A stretch of 64,000 nt of DNA from Acidimicrobiales bacterium (lineage in GTDB: Bacteria; Actinomycetota; Acidimicrobiia; Acidimicrobiales; WLNW01): NCBI GenBank assembly GCA_039934635.1, contig JBDTLT010000011.1, forward strand, positions 5,118 through 69,117, in the 5' to 3' direction. Shown piece after piece: positions 4,080 to 11,843 of the stretch. The notes beneath the pieces are model-generated. The model had not been told where the DNA came from. It did not search any database and saw only the letters and a program-made list of their open reading frames with translations. The translations under genes were made by a program, and so were the position numbers. The stretch's first letter is position 1, and every line of letters starts with the position of its first letter.

Positions 4080-4106
4080 ATTTGTTACTATGGCCGTAGT
4101 GGAAAT
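4080..4106. promoter_or_regulatory. Palindromic operator-like motif upstream of sufB
   Basis: ATTTGTTACTAT-GGCC-GTAGTGGAAAT; related motifs lie at 5969-5994 and 11818-11843. Confidence 0.6.
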
Positions 4107-4143: not shown

Positions 4144-5541
4144 ATGGCTGACATTGGCGTTGATCTGAGCCGCTACGCCCTCGGGTGGCACGACGAAGTT
4201 GTTTCCGTCTTCGAGCCCAAGCGTGGCTTGAACGCCGACATCGTCAAAGAGATCTCCGGCATCAAGGGCGAGCCCCAGTGGATGCTCGACTTCCGGTTGA
4301 AGTCACTGCGCCAATTCGAAAAGCGGCCCATGCCCAATTGGGGCGGCGATCTCTCCGAGATCTACTTCGACAACATCTTCTATTACATCAAGCCGACCGA
4401 CCATCAGGTCGACGCGTGGGATGCCTTGCCCGAGTCGGTGAAAAAGACCTACGAAAAGCTCGGTATTCCCGAGGCCGAGCGCAAGTACCTCGCGGGGGTC
4501 ACCGCGCAGTACGAAAGCGAAGTCGTCTTCCATCGCAATCGTGAAGATCTCGCCGGTCTCGGTGTGATCTTCTGCGACATGGACACCGCGCTGCGCGAGT
4601 ACCCCGATGTCGTCAAGAAGCACATGGGCAAGATCATCCCGTCGAACGACAACAAGTTCTCTGCGCTCAACTCCGCCGCGTGGAGCGGTGGCTCGTTCAT
4701 CTACGTCCCACCGGGCGTCAAGGTGCCGATGCCGTTGCAGGCCTACTTCCGTATCAACTCGGAGAACATGGGCCAGTTCGAGCGCACGTTGATCATCGCC
4801 GACGAGGGCTCCGAAGTGCATTACATCGAGGGTTGCTCGGCACCGGTCTACACGACCGATTCATTGCATTCGGCGGTCGTCGAGATCTTCGTCGGCAAGT
4901 CGGCTCGAGTGACCTACACGACCATCCAAAACTGGTCCAACAACGTCTTCAACTTGGTCACCAAGCGCGCCCGGGTCGAGGCCGAGGGCCACATGGAGTG
5001 GATCGACGGCAACATCGGTTCGCGTCTCACGATGAAGTACCCCGGTGTCGTCATGGTCGGCCCCAAGGCATCCGGTGAGGTGCTGTCGGTCGCCTATGCG
5101 GGGCAGGGCCAACATCAAGATGCCGGCGCCAAGATGGTGCACGCCGCGCCCGAGACGACCTCCAAAATCGTGTCCAAGTCGATCTCCAAGGACGGCGGGC
5201 GCACCAGCTATCGCGGTCTGGTGCGGGTCGAAGGCGACGCCTACGGCTGCAAGAGTCATGTGCAGTGCGACGCGCTCATTCTCGATGACCATTCCATCTC
5301 CGACACGTTCCCCTACATGGAGATCGGCGCCAAAGATGCGGTCATCGGCCACGAGGCGACGGTGTCCAAGGTCGCGGACGATCAACTCTTCTACTTGATG
5401 AGCCGCGGGCTCTCGCACGAACAAGCCATGGGCATGATCGTCAACGGCTTCATCGAGCCGGTGACGCGCACGCTGCCGATGGAGTACGCGGTCGAGTGGT
5501 CACGCCTCATCGAACTACAGATGGAAGGCAGCGTCGGCTGA
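4144..5541 (+). CDS. sufB: Fe-S cluster assembly protein SufB
   Basis: [62 protein letters not shown]...LQMEGSVG. Confidence 0.98.
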
Positions 5542-5607
5542 GCCTGCGAAGCAGCGTGCCATGCCCCCCGCGTGCCGTGCACGCGGCGGGTTTGGCAAGA
5601 TGGGGTG

Positions 5608-5967
5608 ATGCCCATGCGGGAAGAGTGCAAGTTCTTCGAGAGTCGGACCTATAAGAACGGTGAGACCGTCCGCAAGTGCGACCTCGACCTTGCCCCCGAG
5701 GCGCCGTGGCGTTGTCCGGAGAACTGCGCGGCGTTCACGCCGCGGATGGCCGACGTCAATTGGGCCCACGGCACGCTCGTGACGCCGCCGACGCCCGCCG
5801 AGCCGAAGAGCCTCGAAGAAGATCCCGAATCGGTGGCCCGTCTGCTCGACGAAGCCGAGGACATCCTCAACGAAGCCGGACCGCGCATCGTCGACGAGGT
5901 CAATCGCCAGCAGGGTCGAGACCCGGCTCGGCGAAAGTGGTGGCCGTTCGGTCGCGCCGGGCGCTGA
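5608..5967 (+). CDS. Uncharacterised protein with a C-x16-C-x11-C-x3-C motif, between sufB and sufD
   Basis: ORF fills the sufB-sufD gap with typical codon usage; four Cys in the N-terminal 40 aa, acidic helical middle, basic/aromatic tail (RRKWWPFGR). Confidence 0.8.
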   Translation: MPMREECKFFESRTYKNGETVRKCDLDLAPEAPWRCPENCAAFTPRMADVNWAHGTLVTPPTPAEPKSLEEDPESVARLLDEAEDILNEAGPRIVDEVNRQQGRDPARRKWWPFGRAGR

Positions 5968-5968
5968 T

Positions 5969-5994
5969 ATTTCCCCTACGCGGATAGGATTATT
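5969..5994. promoter_or_regulatory. Degenerate copy of the suf operator-like palindrome directly before sufD
   Basis: ATTTCCCCTAC-GCGG-ATAGGATTATT, ending 3 nt before the sufD GTG. Confidence 0.45.
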
Positions 5995-5997
5995 TCC

Positions 5998-7266
5998 GTG
6001 GTTTCGGTCTTTGCCCCCGATGTAGCGCGCTCGCTCGACGGGCCCCAATGGCTTCGCGAATTTCGCCGTGGCGCGGCCGAGCGGGTTGCAGCGGGTTCCT
6101 TGCCCACCGCCGACGAAGAGGTGTGGCGCTACACCCGCATCGGTGATCTCGCCATCGACCGCTTTCACCTGAGCGACGGCGTCAGCGGTGATGCCCGCAC
6201 CGTTGCCCAGGTGCAGACCGTGCTCGGCGCCTACAGCGACACCGCCGCGGTAGTCGTCGTGCACAACGGACGGCTCGCGCATGTCTCGCAATCGGTCGCT
6301 CGCGGGCTCTACGTAGGGCCGCTGACCGGCTATCGCGGTGGCGAAACGCTGCTCGGCTCGGCGTCGCCCGCCGCCACCGATCTCTTCGCGGAGATGAACA
6401 ACGCATTCGCCGCAGAGCCTCTCGCAGTGGTCGTGGACGCGAACGCCGAGATCGACGCGCCGATTGTGGTCGTGCACTGGAACGACGGCGCCGACGCTGC
6501 GGTGTTTCCCCGTCTCGTCGTGCGGGCGGGCGCCAACAGTCACGCGCTGCTCGTCGAGCACGCGTTGTCGTCGGGCGACACGTTGATGCTGGCTCCCGTG
6601 GTCGAGATGGTGATCGAGCGCGACGCTCGCTTCGGCTATCTCAACGTGCAGCAGTTGGGTGCGAGCACCTGGCAACTGGCATCGCATTCTTCGACCGTCG
6701 ACACCGGTGCCACATTGACCGCGTCAGCCGCGGTTTTCGGTGGCGACTCGGCGCGTCAACGCACCGACTGCCGGCTCATCGGGCGGGGCGCCACCGGCGT
6801 GCTGCAAGCCTTGTATTTCGGCAGCGGTGACCAATTGCTCGACTTCCGCACCTTTCAAGATCACGCGGCGCGCGACACCACGAGCAATCTGTTGTTCAAA
6901 GGCGTCATCGACGATCGGGCCCGCTCGGTCTACACCGGGCTCATCCATGTGCGACCCGATGCCCGGGGGACCAACGCGTTCCAGACGAACCGCAACATCA
7001 AACTCTCTGACGAAGCATGGGCCGAGTCCGTGCCCAACCTCCAGATCGAGAACAACGACGTCAAGTGCAGCCACGCGTCGACCGTCGGCCCCGTCGACGA
7101 AGACCAACGCTTCTATCTGGAGAGTCGCGGTTTGCATCCCTCGCGAGCCGAGCGTTTCATCGTCGCCGGCTTCTTCGACGAGGTGCTCCACGCCCTGCCG
7201 GTCGCCGCCGCTCGTCCGATCGTCGCCGCGGCAATCACCGCCAAACTTGGCGAGGAGTCGAAGTGA
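5998..7266 (+). CDS. sufD: Fe-S cluster assembly protein SufD
   Basis: PTADEEVWRYT, LLFKGVI, AFQTNRNIKLS, SVPNLQIENNDVKCSHASTVG, FYLESRG. Confidence 0.95.
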   Translation: MVSVFAPDVARSLDGPQWLREFRRGAAERVAAGSLPTADEEVWRYTRIGDLAIDRFHLSDGVSGDARTVAQVQTVLGAYSDTAAVVVVHNGRLAHVSQSVARGLYVGPLTGYRGGETLLGSASPAATDLFAEMNNAFAAEPLAVVVDANAEIDAPIVVVHWNDGADAAVFPRLVVRAGANSHALLVEHALSSGDTLMLAPVVEMVIERDARFGYLNVQQLGASTWQLASHSSTVDTGATLTASAAVFGGDSARQRTDCRLIGRGATGVLQALYFGSGDQLLDFRTFQDHAARDTTSNLLFKGVIDDRARSVYTGLIHVRPDARGTNAFQTNRNIKLSDEAWAESVPNLQIENNDVKCSHASTVGPVDEDQRFYLESRGLHPSRAERFIVAGFFDEVLHALPVAAARPIVAAAITAKLGEESK

Positions 7267-7589
7267 AGCAGTTCTTATTGTGCGCCGTTGACGATCTCGC
7301 GCCCGCGACGGCGCGGCGCTTCGACGTAGACGCACACCGCATCGCGCTGGTGCGCATCGACGACGACTTCTACGCCATCGGCGACACGTGTTCGCACGCG
7401 GACTACTCGCTCTCCGAAGGCGAGGTCAACCTCGAAGAACGCACGCTCGAATGCTGGAAGCACGGCAGCCAGTTCAGCGTCGAAGACGGACATCCGGTGT
7501 CGCTACCCGCCACGCGGCCGGTGCCGGTCTACAAAGTCGTCGTCGAAGACGGCTCGGTCTACGTGTCGATCGAGGCCGGCGATGAGTGA
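7263..7589 (+). CDS. Rieske-type ferredoxin (non-heme iron oxygenase ferredoxin subunit)
   Basis: GTG start overlapping the sufD stop; CSH..(x17)..CWKHGSQF Rieske motif. Usual member of actinobacterial suf operons. Confidence 0.92.
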   Translation: MKQFLLCAVDDLAPATARRFDVDAHRIALVRIDDDFYAIGDTCSHADYSLSEGEVNLEERTLECWKHGSQFSVEDGHPVSLPATRPVPVYKVVVEDGSVYVSIEAGDE

Positions 7590-8370
7590 GCTCGTGATCA
7601 GGGGCCTGTACGCGTCGGTGCGGGGCGCGCCCATTCTGCGCGGCGTCGATCTGGTCGTGCGCAGCGGCGAAGTGCACGCGGTGATGGGCCCCAATGGGTC
7701 GGGCAAATCGACGTTGGCGCATGTGCTGATGGGTAAGCCCGGCTACGAGGTCACCGAGGGTTCGATCACGCTCGATGGTGTCGACCTCGTGGGCCTTGCG
7801 CCGTGGCAGCGGGCCCGGGCGGGGCTGTTCCTCGGCCTGCAGTATCCCGTCGAGGTACCCGGCGTGCACGTGGGCGAGGTTCTGGTCGAGGCCCTCGCGG
7901 CGGGCGGGCTTTCGCACGAGGCCGCCGACGAACGCATCGCGTCGGAGGCACCCCGCCTCGGACTCGACGACATGTTCTTCACGCGTGCGCTCAACGTCGA
8001 TCTCTCGGGCGGCGAGAAGAAGCGCGTCGAGACCTTTCAGCTCGCGGTGCTGCGGCCCAAGATCGCGGTGCTCGACGAGCTCGATTCGGGCCTCGATATC
8101 GACGCGTTGCGCCTCGTCAGCCGCCGTGTCGAAGACGCGACCAAAGAGTTCGATCTCGGCGTGCTCGCCATCACGCACTACCAGCGCCTGCTCGAAGTAC
8201 TGCACGCTGATCACGTGCACATCTTCGCCAACGGTCGCATCAAGGCCAGCGGCGGCCCCGAGCTGGCGTCCGAGCTCGAACGCACCGGCTATGCCGCGTG
8301 GGCCGACGCCGAGGCCGCGACCGTCGTCGCCGATCCGTTCGCGGATCCCTTCGCGGATCCCTTCGCCTGA
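7582..8370 (+). CDS. sufC: Fe-S cluster assembly ATPase SufC (copy 1), C-terminal (ADPF)3 tail
   Basis: Walker A GPNGSGKST, QYPVEVPG, LSGGEKKR signature, Walker B DELDSGLDID, ITHYQR. Confidence 0.95.
   Translation: MSELVIRGLYASVRGAPILRGVDLVVRSGEVHAVMGPNGSGKSTLAHVLMGKPGYEVTEGSITLDGVDLVGLAPWQRARAGLFLGLQYPVEVPGVHVGEVLVEALAAGGLSHEAADERIASEAPRLGLDDMFFTRALNVDLSGGEKKRVETFQLAVLRPKIAVLDELDSGLDIDALRLVSRRVEDATKEFDLGVLAITHYQRLLEVLHADHVHIFANGRIKASGGPELASELERTGYAAWADAEAATVVADPFADPFADPFA
8329..8364 (+). repeat. 12-nt tandem repeat x3 encoding (ADPF)3 at the SufC1 C-terminus
   Basis: gccgatccgttc gcggatcccttc gcggatcccttc, followed by gcc tga. Confidence 0.9.
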
Positions 8371-8433: not shown

Positions 8434-8733
8434 ATGCCGGTAGATCGCCGTCCCCTGTCCTCCGCCGAGGTCGCCCACCTCGTCGCGCCACTCGACGGAT
8501 GGGAGCTCGACGGCGACACGTTGCGGCGTCAGCTGGTCTTCGACTCGTTCGTGCAGGCCTTCGGCTTCATGGCCCAGGTGGCCCTCATCGCCGAGCGCCT
8601 CGACCATCACCCGAACTGGTCCAACGTGTACAACCGCGTCGACATCGCCGTCACGACGCACGATGCGGGCGGCTTGACCGCGCTCGACTTCGAGTTCGTG
8701 CGCCGGGTCGACGCGGTCTTGTCGCGAGCCTGA
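8434..8733 (+). CDS. phhB: Pterin-4-alpha-carbinolamine dehydratase
   Basis: F..AFGFM..VALIAERLDHHPNWSNVYNRV.I..TTHDAGGLT.LDF. Confidence 0.92.
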   Translation: MPVDRRPLSSAEVAHLVAPLDGWELDGDTLRRQLVFDSFVQAFGFMAQVALIAERLDHHPNWSNVYNRVDIAVTTHDAGGLTALDFEFVRRVDAVLSRA

Positions 8734-11817: not shown

Positions 11818-11843
11818 ATTTGCACTATGCCGGTAGTGGTAAT
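11818..11843. promoter_or_regulatory. Best copy of the suf operator-like palindrome, over the predicted -35 of sufC2-sufS-sufU
   Basis: ATTTGCACTAT-GCCG-GTAGTGGTAAT; the minus-strand -10 TAGACT is at 11797-11802. Confidence 0.65.

Follow-up and report, generated by a model that had tools for sequence, protein, structure and literature searches.

The SUF system is the main, and often essential, Fe-S assembly system of Actinomycetota, and to our knowledge the picture of what donates iron and electrons to it, and of which accessories are lineage-specific, is still incomplete. In the 64,000-nucleotide stretch of DNA analysed here (the window), the genes for the scaffold proteins SufB and SufD are separated by a short open reading frame for a four-cysteine protein, which we call X, and this raises the question of what such a protein does between two scaffold genes. 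The original prediction, made from the sequence, had proposed a new SUF accessory or an Fe-S sensor; the part that stood is that X belongs to a new four-cysteine family outside the known Suf families, whereas an accessory or sensor role in SUF is plausible only. The locus contains the following features.

4144..5541, plus strand: sufB (TIGR01980, 707.9 bits; PF01458)
5557..5597, plus strand: GC-rich hairpin in the 66-nt spacer between sufB and X (77-nt fold, -41 kcal/mol, z -2.4)
5608..5967, plus strand: X, the 119-residue four-cysteine protein (open reading frame and translation; stop codon TGA at 5965-5967)
5998..7266, plus strand: sufD (TIGR01981, 229.5 bits; PF01458)
7263..7589, plus strand: Rieske-type [2Fe-2S] ferredoxin (PF00355), whose GTG start, inferred from the translation of the reading frame, overlaps the sufD stop (GTGA)
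7582..8370, plus strand: sufC, copy 1 (TIGR01978, 261 bits)
8434-8733, plus strand: pterin-4a-carbinolamine dehydratase (PF01329)
9333-~9800, minus strand: sufU (family scan)
11049-~11800, minus strand: sufC, copy 2 (TIGR01978, 302 bits)

The site claimed for X between sufB and sufD was correct, with the TIGR01980 match (708 bits) on one side and the TIGR01981 match (229.5 bits) on the other. The window also encodes a GNAT acetyltransferase beside the pterin-4a-carbinolamine dehydratase, and a minus-strand sufC2-sufS-sufU unit faces these genes. One of the two sufC paralogues follows sufD and the Rieske gene and the other heads the convergent sufC2-sufS-sufU unit, a split that recurs in many related loci. 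The pterin-4a-carbinolamine dehydratase gene immediately follows sufC1, both in the window and in most related loci, and is a conserved neighbour of the SUF scaffold unit. The hairpin in front of X is not a canonical terminator because it has no U-tract, and it lies outside the three terminator-like sites returned by a terminator scan; attenuation or a role in mRNA stability is possible.

X is a genuine gene, beyond a chance reading frame, as judged by the GC pattern of its codons, its 6,393 database matches and its four invariant cysteines. GC content at codon positions one, two and three (0.68, 0.51 and 0.81) resembles that of sufB and sufD, and this gene-like pattern is absent from the alternative frames overlapping X. 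Translation of 5608-5967 on the plus strand gives MPMREECKFFESRTYKNGETVRKCDLDLAPEAPWRCPENCAAFTPRMADVNWAHGTLVTPPTPAEPKSLEEDPESVARLLDEAEDILNEAGPRIVDEVNRQQGRDPARRKWWPFGRAGR, 119 residues with cysteines at C7, C24, C36 and C40, which bears out the earlier claim of a 119-residue frame with the pattern C-x16-C-x11-C-x3-C. An alternative start, ATG at 5614 (M3), would give 117 residues and has GGGG 7 nt upstream. Relatives of X are often called from M3, although in one Ca. Poriferisocius chromosome (L072) M1 overlaps the sufB stop; ATG 5614 may be the start used by X in the window. The protein divides into four parts:

5608..5781, plus strand: N-terminal four-cysteine module, residues 1-58, with C7, C24, C36, C40, G18 and the LDLAPEAPWRCP motif as invariant or nearly invariant columns
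5782..5823, plus strand: Pro-rich linker, residues 59-72, TPPTPAEPKSLEED, with P66 conserved in 91%
5824..5919, plus strand: acidic helix, residues 73-104, with L80 and E84 nearly invariant and an AF2 helix at pLDDT 89-97
5920..5964, plus strand: basic, aromatic C-terminal tail, RDPARRKWWPFGRAGR, with composition kept and sequence variable across the family

The Pro-rich linker (TPPTPAEP), acidic segment and RRKWWPF tail described beforehand are all present in the translation, the tail being both basic and aromatic, and AF2 predicts the claimed acidic helix at residues 73-104. Charge is distributed in the same way across the family, with median net charges of 0 for the N-terminal module, -8 for the middle segment and +6 for the last 25 residues. 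Nearly every tail is basic, with a net charge from 0 to +15 (median +6), 94 of 115 tails contain an aromatic residue, and in some clades the tail is a pure Lys/Arg run; X of the window ends in RRKWWPFGRAGR, a tail that includes Pro and Gly. Modeled at full length from the family alignment, X reached a pLDDT of 78, with a beta-hairpin (residues 10-14 and 20-24) and cysteine-bearing loops predicted at moderate confidence only (pLDDT 67-88). The cysteine module alone (residues 1-58) reached a pLDDT of 48 and was unusable for a fold search. This weak model of the module would be compatible with a fold that requires a cofactor, and proves nothing.

We searched for known families that could explain X by running hmmscan against Pfam at E<=0.01 and at E<=10, bearing in mind that the HMMER filters drop most matches above about 0.1. 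Neither the Pfam nor the NCBIfam scans, including those at E<=10, assigned X to a family, and they returned only sub-threshold noise (DUF2880, DUF1163). A PDB profile search with X gave as its best match a C2H2 zinc-finger consensus at E 0.2, aligned via 'P-x-x-CPE-C' only. The original prediction had named structure prediction and Foldseek as a check; run on the full-length AF2 model, Foldseek found no PDB fold below E 2, the remainder being WW domains and RbpA noise at probability <=0.2. A profile search that combined long and short members of the family with outgroup members returned only the X family among its best 120 matches. No known family is related to that of X, which is itself undescribed; the system that hosts it is the well-known SUF pathway.

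The individual candidates among Fe-S proteins fared no better. X has no profile match to the A-type carriers SufA/IscA (PF01521), which are marked by a C-terminal C-x(n)-C-x-C, and matches none of SufU/IscU (PF01592), SufT/DUF59 (PF01883), Nfu (PF01106) or SufE (PF02657) in Pfam and NCBIfam. As for SufR (COG2345), X has no helix-turn-helix family match, and its AF2 model consists of a beta-hairpin and a single long helix. The earlier statement that X is none of SufA, SufE, SufT, SufU or SufR agrees with these scans, which gave no Pfam, NCBIfam or helix-turn-helix match, and with a model that contains no winged helix. X gives no profile match to the WhiB-like family (PF02467) at E<=0.01 or E<=10, and both the WhiB cysteine motif and the GVWGG turn are absent from its sequence. 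There are no CxxC (CPxC) pairs of the kind that form knuckles on beta-hairpins in zinc ribbons and rubredoxin-like proteins, and the CxxCxxCxxxCP motif of 2x[4Fe-4S] bacterial ferredoxins is also absent, the C36-P37 pair alone recalling it.

Two further explanations were rejected. X as a fusion partner (X-SufD, X-SufB or X-GGDEF) proved to be mostly frameshifted Arg/Pro-rich wrong-frame translations or assembly chimeras when we read the apparent fusions (P0151, P0209, P0249, P0165, P0140, P0129 and others), with P0186 and P0129 undecidable. X as a stand-in for a missing Fe-S carrier was ruled out by the genome of the window, in which other loci encode one A-type carrier (PF01521), three Nfu domains and two proteins with DUF59, leaving no obvious gap in SUF for X to fill.

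The family to which X belongs is large and taxonomically narrow. A word-indexed search matched 6,393 database proteins to X at E<=1e-3, all unnamed or 'hypothetical', with records from Acidimicrobiia such as Dermatobacter hominis, Ilumatobacter fluminis, Microthrixaceae and Ca. Poriferisocius, and in an exhaustive phmmer scan against 1.84 billion representatives the matches amounted to only 242 clusters at 50% identity. Within the class Acidimicrobiia, X is present in 77 of 151 genomes and 53 of 82 genera, and in the order of the window it is present in 34 of 36 sampled genomes. The two exceptions in the order suggest assembly gaps, because one is without any sufD match and the other has a partial sufD only. 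The remaining 74 of the 151 sampled class genomes are without X, and the twelve genomes of about 1 Mb among those listed all belong to this group; any such genome that keeps SUF would show X to be dispensable for SUF. When the cysteine-module profile was searched against 401 genomes of the phylum, we found one solid match outside the class (in genome G153, E 3e-14), the rest being marginal. The family is almost confined to Acidimicrobiia.

Conservation of the cysteines had been set beforehand as a test, and it was upheld. Among 30 diverse members, C7, C24, C36, C40, A29, P30, P33 and P37 are invariant. We drew 120 sequences from independent loci and counted the 115 that were correctly oriented, leaving out five wrong-strand extractions; exactly four cysteines with identical spacing occur in 115 of 115 orthologues. 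The conserved core spans residues 1-57 (MxMRxDC[KR]H[FY]ESRTYxxGExxRxCxLDLAPEAPWRCPxxCxx[FY]xxR...W..G.L). The same spacing extends to a paralogous family of about 60 residues (55-65), MGVREDCRHYSSRS...CPEDCLFFEPR...GW, which also retains G18 and has 167 database matches, all unnamed and all from Acidimicrobiia (L044-L056, L137, L138); both of its loci with called genes adjoin amt-glnB-glnD and not suf. It is kept as well in the G153 homologue from another class (L150:5998-6417), in which a basic linker joins the four-cysteine module to two C-terminal segments that are hydrophobic and TM-like, and which lies beside a DnaE-like polymerase and a metallophosphoesterase and not near suf. Judged from this conservation pattern, the most likely role of the four cysteines is to coordinate a metal ion or an Fe-S cluster.

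We then asked how tightly X is bound to suf, analysing 102 loci of the window's order. SufB is encoded upstream of X on the same strand in 80 of the 102 loci (within 150 nt in 49 of these, with a median of 31 nt), and sufD lies downstream on the same strand in 80 of 102 (70 within about 300 nt). No other feature of the locus is as stable as the X-sufD junction, which persists despite genes inserted between sufB and X, among them a divergent PAS-GGDEF gene in Dermatobacter and Microthrixaceae. In one genus a 323-residue polytopic membrane protein is encoded between sufB and X (L012:1839-2810, minus strand), with a one-base overlap between its stop and the X start. The Ca. Poriferisocius chromosome L072 shows the closest packing, the sufB stop and X start sharing a base (TAATG) and the X stop overlapping the sufD start (GTGA). 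Gap calculation gave 1-nt junctions on both sides of X in 8 further loci, several of them titled Ca. Poriferisocius, and sufB, X and sufD are translationally coupled in this clade. The exceptions in the order are of three kinds: in five loci X is inverted at its usual place, pointing away from sufD; in two it lies beside sufU-sufS; and in a few only the pterin dehydratase is nearby.

Outside the order the picture differs. We found a suf gene near X in 0 of 20 loci that represent further orders and families of the class (flanks of about 5 kb on each side, less at contig ends), so that the sufB-sufD synteny implied by the original prediction holds within the window's order and fails in the class's other orders, and homologues are unlinked to suf over roughly half of the family's phylogenetic range. 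X there closes a conserved string of housekeeping genes for murI, a metallo-beta-lactamase-fold protein, RNase PH (rph), Ham1/RdgB, an Abhydrolase_3 esterase and a 185-residue protein that has no family match. A copy of the last, with 63% identity, is present in the genome of the window on a different contig, which rules it out as an obligate partner of X. In these other orders no gene separates sufB from sufD, which are about 70-80 nt apart, and X is roughly 0.4 Mb away from them or on another contig. Because X is unlinked to suf and sufB-sufD is contiguous in these orders, the family predates its SUF linkage, the gene having relocated into the sufB-sufD junction in one order. In some other-order genomes the SufB matches (G080:C3:413168-413599 and G025:C1:896941-897807) lie in open frames of about 1,000-1,100 residues, which may be intein-containing sufB.

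A second recurrent neighbour of X is a PAS-GGDEF gene, which encodes a diguanylate cyclase. It diverges from X within 600 nt in 10 of the 102 in-order loci and diverges from it in two other-order loci (L033, L043), and in a distant family 6 of 9 loci have it convergent with X at a distance of 1-3.7 kb. The divergent arrangement is seen in and out of suf context (L001-L003, L033, L043, L057, L059, L060, L073, L081, L089, L107). Inside the order this link is weaker than the link to suf, yet it crosses orders.

The regulation of the locus bears on whether X belongs to the SUF regulon. We identified a palindromic suf operator, [AC]CTA-N6-TAG[GT] with AT-rich flanks, by motif match at three places in the window:

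4083..4104, unstranded: operator copy upstream of sufB (TGTTACTATGGCCGTAGTGGAA)
5971..5992, unstranded: operator copy between the X stop and the sufD start (TTCCCCTACGCGGATAGGATTA)
11820..11841, unstranded: operator copy upstream of the minus-strand sufC2-sufS-sufU unit

Across about 130 related loci, approximately 66 of 76 occurrences of the operator lie just upstream of sufB, sufD or sufC2-sufS-sufU, and only in L007 and L008 does X have such a site upstream of it. Since one copy follows the X stop, sufD-Rieske-sufC1 has its own putative control, and X of the window, lacking an operator, could share the regulation of SUF only if it is read as second gene on a joint sufB-X transcript; the conserved operator at sufB implies that such a transcript would be co-regulated. 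An operator-like site also lies just upstream of sufB in 3 of 4 other-order genomes examined, in which X is unlinked. The strict operator pattern gave too few matches in 17 genomes, no more than the control, for an other-order regulon to be defined.

Could X itself be the repressor that binds this palindrome? It is cysteine-rich, has a basic tail and is encoded within the regulon, and ORF and family scans revealed no regulator gene in the window. We nevertheless regard this explanation as highly improbable because X has no helix-turn-helix or other DNA-binding domain, and the sites upstream of sufB in genomes where X is unlinked also argue against it. Recognition by SufR (COG2345) involves a palindrome with AT-rich flanks (bioRxiv 10.64898/2025.12.26.696629), and by analogy the shape of the suf operator is consistent with SufR-type sites.

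Taken together, we favor the reading that X is a lineage-specific four-cysteine protein, probably binding a metal or an Fe-S cluster, which one order recruited into SUF, where it would be a non-core component (an accessory, an adaptor or a sensor) that may be anchored at the membrane; we give this a probability of roughly 0.45. On this reading X would be a small cytoplasmic protein of Acidimicrobiia in which the four-cysteine module and the acidic helix are followed by a tail that is polybasic and in many members aromatic. It would have moved between sufB and sufD in the ancestor of Acidimicrobiales, the order of the window, and it would have been retained there since, transcribed with sufB, with sufD or with both, and translationally coupled to both in some clades. 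X might then serve as a cluster- or metal-binding adaptor or sensor that is co-produced with the SufB/SufD scaffold, its acidic helix contacting a partner protein and its basic tail attaching to an anionic surface such as a membrane. Metal or Fe-S binding, scaffold interaction and the role of the tail are all things that we infer from the sequence and its context. The tether idea is supported indirectly by the MinD-like tails of some family members and by the hydrophobic C-terminal segments of the G153 homologue. A dedicated role in SUF is weakened by the unlinked position of X in other orders, by the recurrence of PAS-GGDEF and by the operator after the X stop, and the five inversions of X relative to sufD also count against an accessory function.

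A stronger version of this proposal makes X an extra subunit of the SufBC2D complex in Acidimicrobiales, an Fe or Fe-S adaptor whose acidic helix would dock on SufB or SufD and whose basic-aromatic tail would hold the scaffold at the membrane. We consider it unlikely. If it were true, a tethered scaffold might receive iron or electrons there or deliver clusters to membrane complexes, and the finding would bear on how SUF obtains iron and reducing equivalents.

Two explanations place X outside the SUF machine. X may be a stand-alone signalling protein that senses redox state, iron or Fe-S status, an analogue of WhiB-like proteins with PAS-GGDEF as a possible partner, in which case the Arg/Trp tail might be a c-di-GMP ligand or a DNA contact and the sufB-sufD site would be inherited from a single relocation. 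The age of the family, which predates its suf link, its separation from suf in other orders, the recurrent PAS-GGDEF neighbour within and beyond the order, and the absence of a suf operator belonging to X all fit this explanation, and the arrangement of four cysteines followed by a basic tail in an actinobacterial lineage recalls the Wbl proteins. It stays as a rival because the PAS-GGDEF link crosses orders. Yet X has no Wbl signature, with PF02467 giving no match and the cysteine spacing differing, and no c-di-GMP, DNA or sigma-binding motif was identified in it; the GGDEF neighbour is absent from most in-order loci, the window included, and the coupling of X to sufB and sufD in one clade favors co-production with the scaffold. 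On balance we find a signalling role somewhat unlikely.

Alternatively, X may be a structural zinc-binding or cofactor-independent housekeeping protein, for example one that binds membranes or nucleic acids through its polybasic tail, and a neutral passenger of the suf locus that has remained there through slow decay of gene order. This would sit well with an ancestral context in the housekeeping string murI-MBL-rph-rdgB, with the pure Lys/Arg tails of some clades, with the 60-residue paralogue that adjoins amt-glnB-glnD instead of suf, and with the inversions and insertions around X, which show that operon integrity is not required. Slow decay is harder to reconcile with the sufB-sufD position being kept across many families of the order despite local rearrangements, and with the clade in which X overlaps the sufB stop and the sufD start. 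Zinc ribbons typically carry paired CxxC knuckles, and the widely spaced single cysteines of X (x16, x11, x3) are unlike these. We judge a passenger improbable and retain recruitment into SUF, as a non-core accessory, adaptor or sensor, as the preferred reading.

Whichever reading is correct, a strictly conserved four-cysteine protein that has no detectable relative and is translationally locked between scaffold genes in some genomes is a cheap biochemical target, its 119 residues being amenable to expression in E. coli. The family merits a domain-of-unknown-function entry, having more than 6,000 members together with a 60-residue paralogous family that shares its module. The age of the family, its unlinking in sister orders and the recurrence of PAS-GGDEF also warn against a 'Suf' annotation from gene context alone.

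Among known systems, X most readily invites comparison with the WhiB-like (Wbl) [4Fe-4S] proteins. Like them it is small (about 80-120 residues), restricted to an actinobacterial lineage and plausibly a cluster-dependent sensor, with exactly four invariant N-terminal cysteines followed by helical and basic C-terminal parts. The WhiB-like motif is C-x(14-31)-C-x2-C-x5-C plus a G[V/I]WGG turn; in contrast, X has the spacing C-x16-C-x11-C-x3-C, not C-x(n)-C-x2-C-x5-C, and no GVWGG turn, its N-terminal module is predicted to be a beta-hairpin with loops and not a helical bundle, and it is encoded in a SUF scaffold operon. X shares with the small SUF and ISC proteins (SufA/IscA, SufT/DUF59, SufE, SufU/IscU, Nfu and IscX) its size, its place in an Fe-S assembly operon, a putative co-expression with the scaffold and cysteine ligands that suggest cluster or sulfur handling. 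It differs from them in having homology to none, in occurring in one class only and in being linked to suf in one order.

SufR combines an N-terminal winged helix-turn-helix with a C-terminal 3-Cys/Glu [4Fe-4S] site. X resembles it as a putative cysteine-ligated sensor associated with suf in Actinomycetota, and the suf operator of the window resembles SufR-type sites; however, X lacks a winged-helix domain, reaches only half of SufR's size, differs in its cysteine pattern and is not preceded by an operator. Finally, several tails of the X family (GLKRFFRRR, FFKRLFRRS and GFWGRLFGRE) resemble the basic-aromatic tail of MinD, a likeness to C-terminal amphipathic membrane-targeting sequences of the MinD/FtsA type for which we claim no homology. 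Unlike these sequences, the tail of X in the window (RRKWWPFGRAGR) contains Pro and Gly, and the tails of some clades are pure Lys/Arg.
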